Sequence record: NC_027381.1
Reading direction: 5' to 3' (one strand)
Length of the DNA stretch: 64,000 nt
DNA from: Escherichia phage Pollock
The notes beneath the pieces were generated by a model, which was not told the DNA's origin, did no database searches, and saw nothing but the letters and a program-made list of their open reading frames with translations. A program made the position numbers and the translations under genes. Below, one piece after another: positions 4,215-19,663 of the stretch (its first letter is position 1; every line of letters begins with the position of its first letter).

Positions 4215-4670
4215 TTGGATATGAAAGTTAAACTGAAAGTACTTCCATTTAATAACACCAATATGAGCTTACCTAAACCAGCAACAGATGGTTCTGCTGG
4301 TATTGATTTACGAGCCAATACAGTTATGCCATTCGAACTTAAACCGGGAGAAACTACTCTGGTAAATACTGGTTTAGCTATCCATCTGGATGATGTTCAC
4401 TATGCAGGTATGATTTTACCTCGTTCTGGGTTAGGGCATAAACATGGTATTGTGCTTGGAAATCTTACAGGTCTCATTGATAGTGATTATCAAGGGGAAC
4501 TGATGGTAAGCCTCTGGAATCGCTCTACAAAGCCTTTTACTATTAATCCAGGTGACCGTATTGCTCAGTTAGTTATTGTGCCTGTAATGCAGCCTGAATT
4601 TGTTATAGTAGACTCTTTTGAAGCTACTGAAAGAGGCGAAGGTGGTTTCAACTCTACTGGAGTTAAGTGA
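4215..4670 (+). CDS. dut: dUTP diphosphatase (dUTPase)
   Basis: 151 aa; near-identical blocks to E. coli Dut as recalled: [59 protein letters not shown]. Confidence 0.92.
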
Positions 4671-4843
4671 TGACTGAACCAATGAGTAAGTTTGAGCTAG
4701 AAAGACATATCCATAATCTTAAGGAATATGATTCCAAGATTGCTGGTCATGAATCTGAAGTAGTTCGTCTACAAGAAGAACGTCGAGAGTACATTAATCG
4801 ACACAATCTTAACAAGATTGCAGAGAAGGTATTTCCTGCTTAA
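4670..4843 (+). CDS. hypothetical small protein (57 aa, coiled-coil-like)
   Basis: ATG overlaps dut stop (GTGATGA); not in ORF track because under 60 aa; translated by eye. Confidence 0.3.
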   Translation: MTEPMSKFELERHIHNLKEYDSKIAGHESEVVRLQEERREYINRHNLNKIAEKVFPA

Positions 4844-4865
4844 GCGCCTACGGCGCTCTCTTTGG
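4843..4865 (+). promoter_or_regulatory. recurrent motif: GC hairpin with 3-nt loop (aGCGCC-TAC-GGCGCt) followed by TCTCTTTGG
   Basis: one of four near-identical instances (4843, 5646, 13796, 59899); function unknown. Confidence 0.4.
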
Positions 4866-4869
4866 TTAT

Positions 4870-4898
4870 AGCTACCTTCGGGTAGCTTTTTATTTTTT
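4870..4898 (+). terminator. rho-independent terminator
   Basis: agctacc-ttcg-ggtagct hairpin followed by ttttatttttt. Confidence 0.6.
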
Positions 4899-4905
4899 GG
4901 GGAAA

Positions 4906-5217
4906 ATGATGGCTAAAGAACCAATCTCCAAACTATGTATTCCTATTGGAGATAAATATGAAATTACCTCTAATGGGTATTCATATGTATTAGTTGAGAA
5001 AAGAACTGTTCAATCAGGAGTTAAAGCTGGGACTACTGCTTCCAGTAATGTTGGTTATTTTCAGACTTTAGGTTCTCTTGCTAAACAGTTAATTAATAAA
5101 GAAGTATGTGAAACTAACATTACTTCTTTACAACAATTAAATGAGCGTATCGAAGAACTAGGTATTGGTATAGCTCAGTTACTTGAACAACTTGTTAAAC
5201 AAAATGAAGGTAAATGA
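4906..5217 (+). CDS. hypothetical protein
   Basis: ORF track gives 4897 (TTG); ATG at 4906/4909 after a GGGGA RBS is more likely. Confidence 0.4.
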   Translation: MMAKEPISKLCIPIGDKYEITSNGYSYVLVEKRTVQSGVKAGTTASSNVGYFQTLGSLAKQLINKEVCETNITSLQQLNERIEELGIGIAQLLEQLVKQNEGK

Positions 5218-5218
5218 A

Positions 5219-5641
5219 ATGGCACTAACCAATGAACAAAAGCAAGCACTTGAAATTGTAGCTGACTTGATTAAACAACAAGAGAATCCTCTAGTTGTTT
5301 CGGCTGGATTGGCTTTGCTGTTTAAATTGGAAATTTCCAATATGTCTCCTCGTGAAGTATTGGAACAGATTGGTAAAGAACTTAAAGCTGAACATGACCA
5401 TGATTCAGGATGTACTTGTCTTGAACGTCATCATTTCTTATTGAACGTTCTGAACAATCTGGAAAAACAGAAGTTCAATGATGAAGTTACTTATAAATTG
5501 TTGAGTACTGCTGAAGATGCTTGGGACACGTTTGAAGAACGTTATGAACGTATTCCTACTGTTACCTATACACCTTCGCAATTCACCATTCAAACTGGTG
5601 TACCGGGTATTTATTTTATTCACCCTGCTGTACAGAAGTAA
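5219..5641 (+). CDS. hypothetical protein
   Basis: ORF track start 5183 overlaps upstream gene; ATG at 5219 right after upstream stop with GAAGG RBS preferred. Confidence 0.4.
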   Translation: MALTNEQKQALEIVADLIKQQENPLVVSAGLALLFKLEISNMSPREVLEQIGKELKAEHDHDSGCTCLERHHFLLNVLNNLEKQKFNDEVTYKLLSTAEDAWDTFEERYERIPTVTYTPSQFTIQTGVPGIYFIHPAVQK

Positions 5642-16151: not shown

Positions 16152-16396
16152 TGGATATCGCATTTGTAGTTTCCAAATTGATTGTTACAGAGTACACGTT
16201 GCTTAGACAATGGTGGCCTGAACAATTACGTCAATCCAGATATGTAGATAATGGAATGACTAGAACTTACTTCTTAGATACACATCCATCCCCTGAACTT
16301 CAAGAACTCATAGAAGAGTTACATAAGTTTGGGAGAGAGTATCGACTTATAGATTTAAGAGGAGTGGAAATAGATAATGCGTCATATAATCTTTGA
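16151..16396 (+). CDS. hypothetical protein
   Basis: 81-aa ORF. Confidence 0.35.
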   Translation: MDIAFVVSKLIVTEYTLLRQWWPEQLRQSRYVDNGMTRTYFLDTHPSPELQELIEELHKFGREYRLIDLRGVEIDNASYNL

Positions 16397-18323
16397 ACAA
16401 AATCAAAGATATCCAATCGCCATTCTTATTAAACCTCAACAACTAAAGAAGAAAGAGATATTAGAAGCTTATATCAATCCTACTGGAATCAAGCCAAATC
16501 AATTTATTGCATTTGACCTTGAGTACAATGGGAAAAAAGCTCCTGTATCTATGCAGAAAGACTATCTTAAAGTCTTACTACCAGAGCTTTGTAATTTAAG
16601 AACAGAATATATTCTGTGCTGTGATAGTGCATATTTCAAAACCTTAACCAAGCAATCTAAAGCAGAACCTCATTGTGGTTATGTATTGCCTTGTGTCATT
16701 CCTGGTTTTGAACATCTAAATATTATTTTCTGTCCTAATTATGCTCAGATTTTCTATGACCCTTCTGTACAGGATAAAGTTAATCTGGCTCTCAAAGTTC
16801 TAGTAGATAAGGTAAATGGTCAATACCAAGAGATTGGTAAGAACATTATCCATACTGCTTACTATCCTTCTACAGTTGAAGAAATTGAAGCTTGGCTTGA
16901 ATCTCTACATCAATATCCAATTCTAGCTTCAGATATAGAGGCATTTAGTCTTAAATTCTATAAAGCAGGTGTAGGTACTATTGGATTTGCATGGGACCAA
17001 CACAATGGAGGAGCATTCGCTGTTGATTATACGAATGAACCAGACAAGGCTGAAAGAATTAGGCAGGCTCTTAAGAAGTTTTTTGAAACTTATGAAGGCA
17101 AACTGATTTGGCATAACTCAAGTTATGACTTAACAGTGCTTATTTACCAGCTTTGGATGAATGGTTTAGTAGACCAAAAAGGATTGCTTAAGGGTTTGCA
17201 CATCATGTGTCGTAATTTTCACGATACTAAGATTGTGACATATCTGGCTACAAACTCTTGTGCAGGTAATGAGTTAGGGCTAAAAGCTCAAGCTCATGAA
17301 TTTGCAGGAAACTATGCACAAGAAGATATTGATGATATTACTAAAATCCCATTACCAGACCTTCTGGAGTACAACTTAATTGACTGTCTAAGTACTTGGT
17401 ATGTTGCAGACAAACATGCAGATACTATGGTATTGGATGAACAATGGGAAATTTATAATACTCTGATGTTACCTTCGCTGAAGAATATTATTCAGATGCA
17501 ATTAACTGGTATGCCTATTGATATGGCAGAGGTTAAGAAGGTTAAAGCAGAAATGATTAAAGAGCGAGATGGTTATCTTAGAGCCATCAAGTCATTTGCA
17601 GTAGTAGATTTGTTAGTTAACAACCTACGTAAACAACATGTTGCTACTAGAAATGCTACGCTCAAAACCAAGCAAATTACAATGTCTGATGAGGAGACAT
17701 TAGCAATAGAGTTTAATCCAAACTCTAACCCTCAAATGCAGGAACTTTTGTATGAAATTATGGGATTACCTGTAATTGATTTAACTGATTCTAAGCAGCC
17801 TGCTACTGGTGCAGATACTCTAGAAAAGTTAATTCATCATACAGATGATGATAGACAGAAAAAGATTCTTGAATGCCTTATTAAATATTCTAAGGTAGAA
17901 AAAATTCTTTCTGCATTTATACCTGCATTCGAAGAAGCACCTTTAGCTGAAGATGGTACTCATTATTTATTCGGAAGCTATAACTTAGGTGGTACTGTAT
18001 CTGGTCGTTTGAGTTCATCAAAACCAAACATGCAACAAATTCCTTCCTCTAAGAGTCCTTACGCCAAACCTATAAAACGATGTTTTAAAGCTGGTAAAGG
18101 TTGGCTTCTTATTGGATTAGATTTTGCATCTCTTGAAGACCGTATTTCTGCTCTAACAACCAAAGACCCTAATAAATTGAAAGTGTATATGGGGGTGAAT
18201 GTTTATACGGTTACTATAGAGGGGGTTGACCATCATATTCGAGATGACGATACAATCATTTATGATGGTAAAACTTACACTGGTGAAGAGTTCTATGATG
18301 CTTTTACCTGTGGCCTTCTATGA
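16377..18323 (+). CDS. family A DNA polymerase, N-terminal polypeptide (3'-5' exonuclease + pol motif A)
   Basis: 648 aa; exo motifs ASDIEAFSL, YNLIDC; SGRLSSSKPNMQQIP; motif A LDFASLEDRI; homology ends near KVYMG (~18194) then reads ~43 codons into the inserted HNH element. Confidence 0.8.
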   Translation: MRHIIFEQNQRYPIAILIKPQQLKKKEILEAYINPTGIKPNQFIAFDLEYNGKKAPVSMQKDYLKVLLPELCNLRTEYILCCDSAYFKTLTKQSKAEPHCGYVLPCVIPGFEHLNIIFCPNYAQIFYDPSVQDKVNLALKVLVDKVNGQYQEIGKNIIHTAYYPSTVEEIEAWLESLHQYPILASDIEAFSLKFYKAGVGTIGFAWDQHNGGAFAVDYTNEPDKAERIRQALKKFFETYEGKLIWHNSSYDLTVLIYQLWMNGLVDQKGLLKGLHIMCRNFHDTKIVTYLATNSCAGNELGLKAQAHEFAGNYAQEDIDDITKIPLPDLLEYNLIDCLSTWYVADKHADTMVLDEQWEIYNTLMLPSLKNIIQMQLTGMPIDMAEVKKVKAEMIKERDGYLRAIKSFAVVDLLVNNLRKQHVATRNATLKTKQITMSDEETLAIEFNPNSNPQMQELLYEIMGLPVIDLTDSKQPATGADTLEKLIHHTDDDRQKKILECLIKYSKVEKILSAFIPAFEEAPLAEDGTHYLFGSYNLGGTVSGRLSSSKPNMQQIPSSKSPYAKPIKRCFKAGKGWLLIGLDFASLEDRISALTTKDPNKLKVYMGVNVYTVTIEGVDHHIRDDDTIIYDGKTYTGEEFYDAFTCGLL

Positions 18324-18840
18324 ACAACGGTATAAGATTTTTGATGAAGGTTTCATCTTAAATCTTGCAAACAATCAACTCCTAAAACCAATTCTCAATT
18401 CTAATGGATACCTTAAAGTTGGATTAGCTAATGGTGATGGTACTCATCATCAAGAGCTACTTCATATTCTGGTAGCTAAACACTTCATTCTAAATCCTTA
18501 TGGCTACAAACAGGTAAACCATAAAGATGGTAATAAACTGCATTGCCATAAGGACAATCTGGAATTGTGTTCTGCTACTCAGAACGTCAAACATGCATTT
18601 AAAACAGGACTACGCCCCGGTTATATGTCTGCTGATGATAAAGAGAAATATCTCTTTGAGGTACTAGCAGGCAAGCAAGTTAAGGACATTGCTTTTGAAA
18701 TAGGCAGACGTCCTGAAACTCTGCACAAGATGCTTAGAATCACTGCTGACCGACTTGGTATCCGAAATGAATGGGACGATGTTATGAGGAGAAATAGAAA
18801 AGATGTTGCTTTACGACAGCTTGCCAAAATCAACTCATGA
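18226..18840 (+). CDS. HNH homing endonuclease inserted within the DNA polymerase gene
   Basis: 204 aa; HNH core VNHKDGNKLHCHKDNLELCSATQNVKH; different frame from both polymerase parts; true start may be an internal Met (~18295). Confidence 0.7.
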   Translation: MTIIFEMTIQSFMMVKLTLVKSSMMLLPVAFYEQRYKIFDEGFILNLANNQLLKPILNSNGYLKVGLANGDGTHHQELLHILVAKHFILNPYGYKQVNHKDGNKLHCHKDNLELCSATQNVKHAFKTGLRPGYMSADDKEKYLFEVLAGKQVKDIAFEIGRRPETLHKMLRITADRLGIRNEWDDVMRRNRKDVALRQLAKINS

Positions 18841-19663
18841 CTTCACTGGCAAGAAAATTGACAACGTAGTCAAGGCTGGTAATTCGTCAGGGTATGATGG
18901 TCATAGTTTGAGGGCATTTGCTTACTTTGGCGACCAGATGCCTGATATTGTAGATACTGTGGAAAGTATCAATAGTATTCAGGAATTATATAAGGACTTT
19001 AGACAAGACTCTAAAGCTCCTACTTTTGCATTAACTTATCAAGGTACTTATCACACATTAATGGCTAACTGTGGTTTCCCAGAGGATAAAGCCAAAATGG
19101 TTGAGAAGAGGTATCACGAACTCTACTTCGTATCTGACCAATGGGTAAACGCTAAATTAACTCAAGCCAGTAAAGATGGATATATCACTGCTGCATTTGG
19201 ATTAAGAATCCGTACTCCATTACTTAAAAATGTTGTCTGGGGAATTAAACAAACTCCTTATGAAGCTAAAGCTGAAGGCAGAACTGCTGGAAATGCTTTA
19301 GGTCAATCATGGTGTTTATTAAATAACAGGGCAGCAAATGAATTTATGGAACGAGTATGGAATTCTCCATACGCATATGTAATTAAACCATGTGCTCAAA
19401 TCCATGATGCTCAATATTATCTGGTTCCAGATAACATCGACATTGTTCATTGGGTTAATGAAAATTTAGTCGAATGTATTGAGTGGCAAAACCATCCTGA
19501 TATTTATCACGATAAAGTGAAATTAGGAGGGGAATTAAGCGTCTTTTATCCATCATGGGCTAATGATATTTCATTGAAAAATGGAGCCTCTAAAGAGGAA
19601 ATCTTAAGCACATGTGAAATTGGATTAGATAAGTATCTTTACCCGGAGAAATATAAAAAATGA
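18803..19663 (+). CDS. family A DNA polymerase, C-terminal polypeptide (motifs B and C)
   Basis: 286 aa; YDGHSLRAFAYFGD (cf. Pol I DIHRATAAEVFG), motif B-like RQDSKAPTFALTYQGTY, motif C QIHDAQYY; own ATG overlapping the HNH ORF 3' end. Confidence 0.8.
   Translation: MLLYDSLPKSTHDFTGKKIDNVVKAGNSSGYDGHSLRAFAYFGDQMPDIVDTVESINSIQELYKDFRQDSKAPTFALTYQGTYHTLMANCGFPEDKAKMVEKRYHELYFVSDQWVNAKLTQASKDGYITAAFGLRIRTPLLKNVVWGIKQTPYEAKAEGRTAGNALGQSWCLLNNRAANEFMERVWNSPYAYVIKPCAQIHDAQYYLVPDNIDIVHWVNENLVECIEWQNHPDIYHDKVKLGGELSVFYPSWANDISLKNGASKEEILSTCEIGLDKYLYPEKYKK

Follow-up and report, generated by a model that had tools for sequence, protein, structure and literature searches.

The DNA polymerase gene of Bacillus phage SPO1 is interrupted by a group I intron carrying I-HmuI, and phages PhiI and W31 likewise have an intron with an HNH gene. 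A different solution is found in phage Aeh1, for which Friedrich et al. in 2007 reportedly described the gene order nrdA-a / mobE / nrdA-b. The tails that the two NrdA halves owe to the mobE insertion are oppositely charged and essential for the activity of the split enzyme (Crona et al. 2011, PMC3045599). They are needed only for higher-order assembly and not for the binding of one half to the other, and they were proposed to be possible remnants of a degenerate intein (PMC3045599). HNH genes also split the DNA polymerase of the Vibrio N4-like phages JA1 and VchO139-I, where an intron was suggested and tails were not analysed (PMC3670811, 2013). The polymerase gene described here, with its candidate clasp tails, is a variant on what is already known from the Aeh1 NrdA tails and from the split-intein fractured genes of Dassa et al. 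(2009, PMC2677866). The window analysed is a stretch of 64,000 nucleotides from Escherichia phage Pollock (NC_027381.1), and all positions refer to it.

Organization of the interrupted polymerase gene

A first-pass annotation had proposed that a family A DNA polymerase gene is split here between motifs A and B by a free-standing HNH gene, and the ORFs, the Pfam matches and the alignment with Salmonella phage FSL SP-058 all agree with this (Table 1). The HNH ORF is located in a different frame and a third ORF with its own ATG resumes the polymerase, both as described there. The suggested alignment with intact polymerases of relatives was run, using the uninterrupted polymerase of FSL SP-058 (863 aa, 87-88% nucleotide identity) as reference, and it shows a net insertion of 695 nt, window 18189-18883, at KVY / TDGYDGH between the two motifs. 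The interrupted sequence reads KVY, element, SSGYDGH, where the intact one has KVY followed directly by TDGYDGH, and the reading frame is continuous again once exactly 695 nt are taken out.

The insert DNA outside the HNH ORF consists of 106 nt (18189-18294) and 43 nt (18841-18883), in total 149 nt, and not of the approximately 30 and 50 nt given at first. Both stretches are protein-coding, each in the frame of the adjoining polymerase piece, and the HNH gene overlaps the ORF of the N-fragment by 29 nt and that of the C-fragment by 38 nt. The three ORFs use three different frames, stop codons are present at 18321 and 18838, and all lineages share this arrangement. A contiguous intein, which the differing frames had already seemed to exclude, was rejected, as there is no single open frame from host through intein to host. 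An assembly artefact was also rejected, since the IMG/VR contig L008 has the same ORF layout, with an N-ext coding sequence identical to that of the window, and the same architecture is found in at least ten diverged lineages.

Table 1. Features of the interrupted DNA polymerase gene in the window.
Feature	Coordinates	Strand	Description
N-terminal PolA ORF	16377-18323	+	648 aa
PolA N-fragment, native part	16377..18188	+	3'-5' exonuclease domain, thumb, palm motif A (GLDFASLEDR); ends ...KLKVY
N-ext	18189..18323	+	C-terminal tail of N-fragment, 44 codons (MGVNVYTVTIEGVDHHIRDDDTIIYDGKTYTGEEFYDAFTCGLL) and TGA stop; from 5' end of element
Conserved stem-loop	18230..18268	+	CCATCATA...TATGATGG with inner stem; within N-ext coding sequence, ~30 nt upstream of HNH start
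NUMOD4-HNH homing endonuclease gene	18295..18840	+	free-standing, I-HmuI-like, 181 aa, third frame
Shine-Dalgarno and start of C-fragment	18786..18805	+	GAGGAG 18786-18791, ATG 18803-18805; within 3' end of HNH gene
C-terminal PolA ORF	18803-19663	+	286 aa, own ATG
C-ext	18803..18883	+	N-terminal tail of C-fragment, 27 codons (MLLYDSLPKSTHDFTGKKIDNVVKAGN); from 3' end of element
PolA C-fragment, native part	18884..19663	+	begins SSGYDGH; fingers motif B (RQDSKAPTFALTYQG), palm motif C (QIHDAQ)

Polymerase fragments

The N-terminal ORF matches the Pfam families DNA_pol_A_exo1 (PF01612) and DNA_pol_A (PF00476, profile positions 15-180), and the C-terminal ORF matches DNA_pol_A (PF00476) at profile positions 199-342. 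The native part of the N-fragment is colinear with the intact FSL SP-058 polymerase, with 87% nucleotide identity, and matches phrog_17, and the native C-fragment shows 88% nucleotide identity to FSL SP-058 and matches phrog_2573 (E = 4e-69). Connected by a linker, the two fragments give a model that resembles KlenTaq and Bst Pol I (E ~1e-20). The exonuclease and Pol I-type domains of a family A DNA polymerase are present together with motifs A (D..SLE), B (K...F...YG) and C (HD), and all three motifs are intact when read from the translations of the split gene. The N4 variants that carry the cassette are lytic isolates that can be propagated, as AlfredRasser is on E. coli K-12, and given such isolates and the intact motifs the polymerase function is probably kept despite the split.

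The signals of the C-fragment, AGGAG or AAGGAG followed by ATG or GTG, are kept throughout the lineages, even in Pylas and L023, whose HNH residues in the overlap are different, and this conserved Shine-Dalgarno sequence and start support that the C-fragment would be translated independently.

The endonuclease gene and its spread

The HNH frame is open from 18226, and the ATG at 18295 is most likely the true start, in agreement with the annotation of VEc25 and with the frame-specific conservation that begins there. The inferred protein shows similarity over residues 6-105 to PDB entry 1u3e, the structure of I-HmuI (E = 2e-6), and to phrog_59 (E = 3e-33). In Pfam the HNH_3 match has 22.9 bits against a curated cut-off of 24.8, and NUMOD4 is weak and also under its cut-off. 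The catalytic motif VNHKDGN...DNLE...QN is present and the gene has a dN/dS of 0.07-0.11. By its sequence the ORF is an I-HmuI-like NUMOD4-HNH homing endonuclease, with relatives in 415 phage records. The copy in the window is alone in having NLELCS, with Leu, at a position where all relatives have NLEWCS, with Trp.

Both types of allele occur within one species, as N4 has an intact polymerase gene and VEc25 and AlfredRasser an interrupted one. Compared with the Enquatrovirus N4 variants, the insert has an identity of 90-91%, but the polymerase exons one of only about 40-75%. Across the polymerase VEc25 and N4 share 96-100% identity, which falls to 88-93% only around the junction, between about -150 and +33 nt, and the TD codons adjoining the insert are altered compared to the intact genes. 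Homing is indicated by these flanking co-conversion tracts and by the 90% identity of the insert across phage subfamilies. Comparison of the genomes thus gives three marks of mobility for the cassette: a single site that is occupied in some phages and empty in others, co-converted flanks, and a distribution over several host lineages.

The terminal tails

Neither N-ext nor C-ext has a counterpart in intact polymerases, as represented by FSL SP-058 and N4. It had been noted that the N-terminal ORF runs about 43 codons into the insert; the extension is real, with 44 codons from 18189, but it is a selected and conserved tail and not passive read-through. The dN/dS of N-ext is 0.04-0.12 in the polymerase frame, while the two remaining frames have values of about 1-5 (Fisher p 1e-5 to 3e-9). 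Purifying selection at the amino-acid level acts on N-ext with the same strength as on the endonuclease. Among 1.8 billion proteins searched, N-ext was present in 42 clusters (50% identity), in every case at a protein C-terminus, and the tblastn matches are confined to this cassette. C-ext has kept its length and strand pattern in ten lineages, with a dN/dS of 0.06-0.6 in the frame of the C-fragment for the portion outside the HNH overlap. N-ext is acidic, with a net charge from -3 to -7, and C-ext is mostly basic, from +1 to +5.

In the metagenomic phage L025 the HNH gene is lost and both tails are retained, with the two polymerase ORFs 17 nt apart, so that the tails outlive the loss of the endonuclease gene. 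A related N-tail is also present beside a related HNH gene at a second polymerase site.

The stem-loop within the N-ext coding sequence was found in an RNAalifold consensus of seven lineages, where seven of the eight outer pairs are kept in all seven and one is broken in Pylas; the inner stem shows one compensatory change. It has a folding energy of -15.1 kcal/mol (z = -3.4), and it may control the expression of the HNH gene.

AlphaFold2 models in which the fragments were connected by an artificial linker gave pLDDT values of 84-91 for the tails (86-91 for N-ext and 84-89 for C-ext), from an alignment that is shallow over the tails (7 of 80 rows). A construct with the tails only gave a pTM of 0.73, from an alignment that is likewise shallow (all 8 rows), and the pair is only about half as large as a Hint domain. 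The tails are predicted to jointly form an intein-like (Hint-like) mini-domain, with inteins as the nearest structural neighbours of the model, and a Foldseek search gave nothing significant (best E ~1). The smallest known functional inteins have about 125 residues or more. The two tails together have 63-71 residues across the lineages and 71 aa in the window, and as this is about half of the smallest known inteins the resemblance is possibly convergent. We infer that the tails would bind each other and be needed for polymerase activity, the need for them having indirect support from the purifying selection, the retention in L025 and the opposite charges.

Alternative explanations

It is very improbable that the 695-nt insert is a group I intron with an HNH ORF, self-splicing to give a single intact polymerase as in SPO1 and PhiI. 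An intron would explain the exact restoration of the frame, the homology of the HNH protein to the intron-encoded I-HmuI, the conserved hairpin in the 5' flank and the annotation of Pylas and AlfredRasser in GenBank, where the polymerase CDS is joined across the insert, and intron-borne HNH genes splitting the polymerase of the Vibrio N4-like phages have been speculated upon (PMC3670811, 2013). However, an Rfam cmscan of positions 17800-19300 with E values up to 10 gave chance matches only and no group I or II intron, so that the earlier impression of a missing group I core holds also at permissive thresholds. The little DNA left outside the HNH ORF is constrained as protein by purifying selection in the frames of the exons, which would not be seen if splicing removed it ahead of translation, the C-fragment retains its own Shine-Dalgarno sequence and start codon, and the HNH-less L025 has both coding tails with 17 non-coding nt between them. 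The preference for two polypeptides over an intron, expressed from the outset, is borne out by these four observations. We find it hardly credible, either, that the tails work as a split intein of unusually small size, by which the fragments would be trans-spliced to a covalent polymerase, as in the fractured genes (Dassa et al. 2009). The succession of N-tail, free-standing endonuclease, C-tail and 3' overlap with the downstream start does match those genes (PMC2677866), a canonical split intein with a different HNH gene is present at a second site of the same polymerase gene in L020, and the C-ext of the window and of Pylas ends in Asn. The residue directly after C-ext, which is the Thr of the native polymerase, is always Ser or Thr, and this is the sole conserved intein-like residue. 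Against trans-splicing, the first residue of N-ext is M, T, S, Q, I, L, V or A depending on the lineage, and there is therefore no conserved nucleophile at position 1; the last residue of C-ext is N, S, D, K or T, and the N4 variants with Ser replacing the terminal Asn are viable isolates. The TxxH of block B is absent, a block-F-like His is not conserved, the size is far below that of functional inteins, and HMMER, Pfam and hhalign gave no significant similarity between the tails and inteins.

A further possibility is that there are two polypeptides but that the tails are neither derived from an intein nor a clasp, being fortuitous DNA carried along from the earlier location of the endonuclease gene. 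They would then be kept for a stop codon, translational coupling, start signals or minor stabilisation, and the halves would assemble via their native palm and fingers interfaces. This is unlikely, although the Aeh1 NrdA halves bind without their tails (PMC3045599), the sequence tests against inteins and the Foldseek search were negative, and fractures with hardly any tail exist at other sites of related polymerases, namely in that of Shigella phage B2, at the PNMQQIP site, and at the motif B site in L028, with a 6-aa tail. Speaking against it are the amino-acid-level selection on N-ext, equal to that on the endonuclease, the preservation of the tail sequence in L025, the association of related N-tail and HNH gene at the second site, and the confident AlphaFold2 joint fold with its likeness to inteins. 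We consider the tail pair a probable remnant of a split intein (Hint fold), without catalytic function and of roughly half the usual size. The constant Ser or Thr after C-ext and the split intein of L020 also count in favour of a Hint-like fold.

Proposed model

From the observed anatomy, the selected tails and their distribution among phages, the marks of homing and the persistence of the tails where the endonuclease gene is lost, we regard it as rather likely that this is a fractured polymerase gene, in which a homed cassette is tolerated without splicing as its own tails, probably a dead half-intein remnant, reassemble the halves non-covalently. A three-part cassette of N-tail, I-HmuI-like HNH gene and C-tail would have homed into the polymerase of an N4-like (Ithacavirus-like) phage, in the loop that separates motif A from motif B, at KVY / TDGYDGH, and the gene would be expressed as three separately translated proteins, with neither RNA nor protein splicing. 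The polymerase N-fragment, with exonuclease, thumb and motif A, would end in the acidic 44-aa tail. The endonuclease, starting inside the end of the N-tail, probably nicks or cuts cassette-free alleles in mixed infections so that repair copies the cassette in. The C-fragment with motifs B and C would start from its own Shine-Dalgarno sequence and ATG inside the 3' end of the HNH gene, with the 27-aa tail first. Both tails should fold into one small beta-rich domain that closes the broken loop and helps the halves to assemble non-covalently into an active polymerase, and because of this aid to reassembly the invasion of an essential gene would, as we propose, be harmless.

The more specific suggestion, for which we see somewhat less than an even chance, is that the tails descend from a split intein, dead and half-sized, and serve purely as a portable non-covalent clasp, in a cassette that moves as one, occupies at least two polymerase sites in the Schitoviridae and can outlive its endonuclease. 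If true, this would be a third widespread way, beside introns and inteins, for homing endonucleases to make the invasion of essential genes harmless, and the clasp tails would be a missing link from the fractured genes with split inteins to tails of the Aeh1 type. The tail pair is the most interesting part of the locus.

Comparison with known systems

The T4 gp39 / mobA / gp60 arrangement and the split gp43 of T4-like phages (cited in PMC3045599 and PMC2677866) differ in enzymes and endonuclease families, and the match is far too weak for a relationship. In JA1 and VchO139-I the virus family and the gene split by HNH genes are the same as here. SPO1, PhiI and W31 share with Pollock a family A phage polymerase interrupted in a conserved region by an I-HmuI-type HNH element, but their endonucleases reside inside self-splicing introns and one polypeptide results, whereas here no intron was detected and the flanks are translated.

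The fractured genes (Dassa et al. 2009, PMC2677866) have the same order on one strand, N-extein with N-part, endonuclease, and C-part with C-extein, and also a hairpin before the endonuclease gene, host genes for replication enzymes of phage-like elements and a Ser or Thr after the insertion. The 3' overlap of the endonuclease gene with the downstream start is 38 nt here and 6-69 bp in the fractured genes. Their split inteins, however, are full-size and have catalytic residues, and their endonucleases are of the GIY-YIG or Vsr-like kinds, in contrast to the HNH enzyme and 71-aa tails of this locus, and as these tails have no position-1 nucleophile, no block B and no conserved terminal Asn, trans-splicing is very unlikely.

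As in Aeh1, a free-standing HNH gene divides the gene of an essential enzyme into two adjacent genes and overlaps the downstream fragment, and the tails are located within the 695-nt insert and missing from the unsplit genes of FSL SP-058 and N4. The host gene, the endonuclease lineage, which is I-HmuI-like NUMOD4-HNH here, and the tail sequences are different, and the charge polarity is reversed, with the acidic tail on the N-fragment. The Aeh1 tails are known from a single phage and were tested biochemically, whereas those described here are found in 42 clusters and known from sequences and models; unlike the Aeh1 tails they occur at two polymerase sites, survive the loss of the endonuclease and are predicted to share a joint Hint-like fold.

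Structure of the split DNA polymerase gene

The window belongs to an N4-like podophage of the Schitoviridae, with a polymerase region that is 87–88% identical at the nucleotide level to that of Salmonella phages FSL SP-058 and SP-076 (Ithacavirus). The locus is covered by three overlapping ORFs, which the first-pass annotation had taken for a family A DNA polymerase split between motifs A and B by a free-standing HNH endonuclease gene. By BLAST and pairwise alignment the gene is colinear with the polymerase of FSL SP-058, a single protein of 863 aa, save for a net insertion of 695 nt. The protein-level junction is KLKVY/TDGYDGHSLRAF in the intact gene and KLKVY/insert/SSGYDGHSLRAF in the window. 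It falls in the loop that connects motif A (GLDFASLEDR) with motif B (RQDSKAPTFALTYQG); the observation was therefore correct, and the comparison with intact relatives also fixes the insertion point. Of the insert, just 149 nt are outside the HNH ORF, and these two stretches encode protein as well, the upstream one in the tail of the polymerase N-fragment (N-ext) and the downstream one in the 27-codon leader of the C-fragment (C-ext).

Coordinates of the features of the split polymerase in the window and in the compared loci
Feature	Sequence	Position	Remarks
Split polymerase region	window	16377-19663 (+)	three overlapping ORFs
N-terminal polymerase ORF	window (+)		648 aa; 3'-5' exonuclease domain and first half of Pol I polymerase domain (Pfam, PHROGs)
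Middle ORF	window (+)	18295-18840	HNH (Pfam, PHROGs)
C-terminal polymerase ORF	window (+)		286 aa; remainder of polymerase domain (Pfam, PHROGs)
Insert	window	18189-18883	between KLKVY and SSGYDGHSLRAF
N-ext	window	18189-18320	44 codons after KVY
Stem-loop	window	18230-18268	CCATCATA...TATGATGG and inner stem; within N-ext coding sequence, ~30 nt upstream of HNH start
HNH-core substitution	window	18556-18561	NLELCS
N-ext alone	Escherichia phage vB_Eco_AL25 (OW991345.1)	~70054-70185	P0001
Second HNH gene	L002 (Klebsiella phage Pylas)	5032-5550	between small post-polymerase gene and thyX
HNH-less split	L025 (jgi 3300002242 KVWGV2_10026296)	4780-5080	both tails present
N-tail at MPDIQ	L017	305-1877	HNH ORF fused to polymerase C-part
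N-tail at MPDIQ	L022/P0146	848-3050	
N-tail at MPDIQ	L026/P0153	2148-5356	C-fragment follows HNH gene
Three-part polymerase	L020 (Logan SRR25679418_17093)	1-1576	P0138, 124-aa middle piece
Independent HNH insertion	L003 (Shigella phage B2)	3153-3865	
Independent HNH insertion	L010-L013	around 2821	
Additional fracture	L028 (GCA_022076565.1)	4496-5434	84-aa middle piece

Distribution and mobility of the insert

Several phage groups share the insert, its site and its three-frame layout, namely Enquatrovirus N4 variants including VEc25, PMBT57, AlfredRasser and the BEU phages (90–91% nucleotide identity), Gamaleyavirus SP5M and PD205 (76%), Klebsiella phage Pylas (70%), and several IMG/VR contigs, while gp39 of reference N4 is intact. 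Public annotation of the cassette is inconsistent: the GenBank records of Pylas and AlfredRasser have a joined CDS, i.e. an intron, those of VEc25 and SP5M have two polymerase genes, and in vB_Eco_AL25 N-ext by itself is given as a separate protein, a 44-aa "DNA polymerase I".

The inserts of the window and of the N4 variants are ~90% identical, but the polymerase exons of the two phages are only ~40–75% identical. Along the polymerase VEc25 is 96–100% identical to N4, but near the junction, between about -150 and +33 nt, the value dips to 88–93%, and in the same region the identity of the window falls against FSL SP-058 and climbs against VEc25. Such dips mark short tracts of co-conversion. 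In alleles that bear the cassette, SS, ST or TP has replaced the TD encoded by the first two codons past the insert, which is what one would expect were the endonuclease to target the uninterrupted sequence. This endonuclease, of the NUMOD4-HNH type, is a homologue of I-HmuI (PDB 1u3e, E = 2e-6; phrog_59), with relatives in 415 phage records. At one conserved position of the HNH core the window protein has Leu where all relatives have Trp (NLEWCS); this copy may be weakened. Pylas has a second HNH gene, annotated as an intron-type homing endonuclease yet intergenic.

Probable expression of the polymerase as two polypeptides

The split of the polymerase in Vibrio N4-like phages was noted in 2013 and an intron was suggested (PMC3670811), as the joined GenBank records of Pylas and AlfredRasser also imply. 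The first-pass annotation had seen no group I core, and this is borne out by a permissive Rfam scan of 17800-19300, which gave only chance matches and no intron or other RNA family. It had also dismissed an intein since the frames differ, and a contiguous intein is indeed ruled out, since in every lineage each of the three ORFs occupies a frame of its own, with intervening stops. In the window, GAGGAG stands eleven nt 5' of the ATG of the C-fragment, and AGGAG or AAGGAG with ATG or GTG is kept despite differing overlapping HNH residues, MRRN in the window and MKEN in Pylas and L023. In contig L025 the sequence runs ...KLKVY-TGHTIYELNINGTCHHIRDDADIIYDGKSYTGAEFYTKYSNN-stop, followed by 17 nt (TAGGAAAAATAAAAGAA) and then MQEFEDLETSTITIDKNDAFFIKKAGK-TEGYDGHSLRAF...; the HNH gene has been lost, yet two separate polymerase pieces persist, each with its tail, which excludes an intron. 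A +1 frameshift fusing N-ext to the HNH protein is unlikely: the HNH gene is equipped with a conserved ATG of its own and a Shine-Dalgarno-like GGTGAAGAG, and upstream of 18295 its frame shows no conservation (dN/dS 0.8–5). Translational bypassing as in T4 gene 60 was rejected, the gap being 695 nt. With no Rfam intron, a kept ribosome binding site and start for the C-fragment and a two-piece gene that has no endonuclease, the two-polypeptide split favoured from the start is supported, and we are highly confident that the polymerase is expressed in this way. A scan for σ70 promoters and terminators gave matches at chance level only, and σ70 is not relevant to N4 middle transcription.

The stem-loop in the N-ext coding sequence is also present in L002, L004, L005, L010, L016 and L018. 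In a seven-lineage consensus 7 of the 8 pairs of the outer stem are kept in all seven sequences and one is broken in Pylas; the synonymous third positions of this stem are invariant, and the folding energy is -15.1 kcal/mol (z = -3.4). By analogy with what is reported for mobE and fractured-gene loci, this structure may regulate expression of the HNH gene.

Selection on and spread of the tails

N-ext has a dN/dS (Nei-Gojobori) of 0.04–0.12 in the polymerase frame with a synonymous divergence of up to 0.79 per site, whereas the same nucleotides give ratios of about 0.5–5 in the other two frames (Fisher tests, p 1e-5 to 3e-9), a constraint as strong as that on the HNH core (0.07–0.11). For the 16 codons of C-ext that do not overlap the HNH gene, the value is 0.06–0.6 in the C-fragment frame. 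A search of 1.84 billion representative proteins with the N-ext profile gave 42 clusters, in all of which the match forms the very C-terminal end of the protein, and most of them are polymerase N-fragments ending in KLKVY and the tail. The retention of the tails in L025 indicates that they are maintained to the benefit of the polymerase and not of the endonuclease.

A related N-tail (...KVGGTDIHFRASDTLEYEGKTYTGEEFYEAF...) is found ~20 codons further downstream, after MPDIQ, and is followed by a related NUMOD4-HNH gene in three loci (L017, L022 and L026); the tail therefore belongs to a mobile cassette and not to one site. Only in L026 does a C-fragment come after this HNH gene, with a different leader peptide. 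In L017 the HNH ORF continues in frame into a polymerase C-part without motif B; this might be a decaying copy.

Predicted structure of the tails and relation to inteins

N-ext is acidic (net charge -3 to -7) and C-ext is mostly basic (+1 to +5). A model of polymerase residues 344–648 joined to the C-fragment by a 30-aa Gly/Ser linker (80-sequence alignment; mean pLDDT 87) has a normal Pol I fold outside the tails, and the tails themselves are ordered (pLDDT 84–91), with four strands and a helix in N-ext and two strands in C-ext. Modelled alone with a 12-aa linker from 8 sequences, the two tails gave a mean pLDDT of 82 and a pTM of 0.73, predicting one compact domain, which aligns to structural neighbours over 43–61 residues at 2–3 Å rmsd.

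The tails resemble the Hint fold in these models, but Foldseek of the domain against the PDB gave no match below E = 1, HMMER, Pfam and hhalign found nothing significant between tails and inteins, and the resemblance is therefore suggestive, not established. The best hhalign result against 8 inteins aligned VYxVxIxGxxHHI of N-ext with block F (VYDIGVERDHNF) at a non-significant P = 0.01, and C-ext gave P = 0.05–0.12, likewise not significant; an apparent circularly permuted match to a C-intein is not trusted. No N-ext family was found in PHROGs, Pfam or PDB sequences, and a word-indexed protein search with N-ext gave, owing to its word filter, just one entry of 44 aa and was uninformative.

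Across lineages the first residue of N-ext is M, T, S, Q, I, L, V or A, the last residue of C-ext is N, S, D, K or T, and no TxxH block is present in the tails. Only a Ser or Thr following the insertion (the native Thr) is conserved at the junction. A terminal Asn was rejected as evidence of splicing, as Ser is found in VEc25 and SP5M, Asp in L016 and Lys in L018; viable N4 variants have Ser where an intein requires Asn. The tail pair totals 63–71 residues, and the smallest functional inteins known are about twice that size. Judged by these features the tails are not an active intein. As for all functional steps proposed here, we infer from sequence comparison and structure prediction that the tails are probably an assembly device for the split polymerase; an intein ancestry is a more tentative reading, with an even chance at best.

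Other fractures in related polymerases

P0138, the middle piece of the three-part polymerase of L020, starts with a canonical C-intein (MGIRRVYDLEIEEDHCYIANDIYVHN/S; ..VYDLEIEEDHCYIANDIYVHN/S) at a PNLxN(LP) site, preceded and overlapped by a different HNH gene, and ends with an N-ext tail followed by an I-HmuI-like HNH gene. Real split inteins and these tails therefore coexist in one gene family, and L020 looks like a genuine HNH-associated split-intein fractured gene. Shigella phage B2 has a second, independent HNH insertion, an essentially tail-free split at a (K/E)PN(M/L)Q(Q/N/T)IP motif, and in L010–L013 this is combined with the KVY cassette to give a three-piece polymerase. Yet another fracture site is seen in L028, where a second HNH gene, inserted inside motif B, comes after the middle piece, which consists of C-ext ... 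KAPTFALT and a 6-aa tail. The middle pieces P0130, P0142 and P0152 (~120 aa) contain motif A only and end with an N-ext tail; before PGW..GADF they have an unrelated N-terminal leader of ~50 aa, helical by eye, implying one more split, immediately upstream of motif A and with another kind of tail.

Comparison with known fractured genes

Should the tails prove to be a clasp that the element itself supplies, homing endonucleases would be able to enter the catalytic core of an essential enzyme with neither an intron nor an active intein, since they would bring their own repair kit. It would then be clear why the polymerases of Schitoviridae can be broken at four or more sites, and the degenerate-intein idea raised for the single case of phage Aeh1 would gain direct comparative support. 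A tail pair of ~70 aa predicted to rejoin a split polymerase without chemistry could serve as a split-protein joining tool. Within the literature library searched, no paper was found that links inteins or tails to Schitoviridae polymerases. What is new here is that the tails are under selection, widely distributed, mobile with the cassette, persistent without the endonuclease gene and predicted to fold jointly into a Hint-like domain.

In the fractured genes of Dassa et al., a free-standing endonuclease gene of GIY-YIG or Vsr-like type lies between the two parts of a full split intein; its 3' end overlaps the gene that follows, and hairpins are found upstream of it (PMC2677866). These loci are the closest architectural precedent for the cassette. 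The HNH-associated split intein of L020 is a combination that Dassa et al. did not report. The closest functional precedent is NrdA/mobE of phage Aeh1, where tails resulting from the insertion of the HNH gene mobE are essential for the split NrdA enzyme, and whose authors considered them possibly degenerate intein remnants and predicted that similar tails have gone unnoticed elsewhere (PMC3045599).
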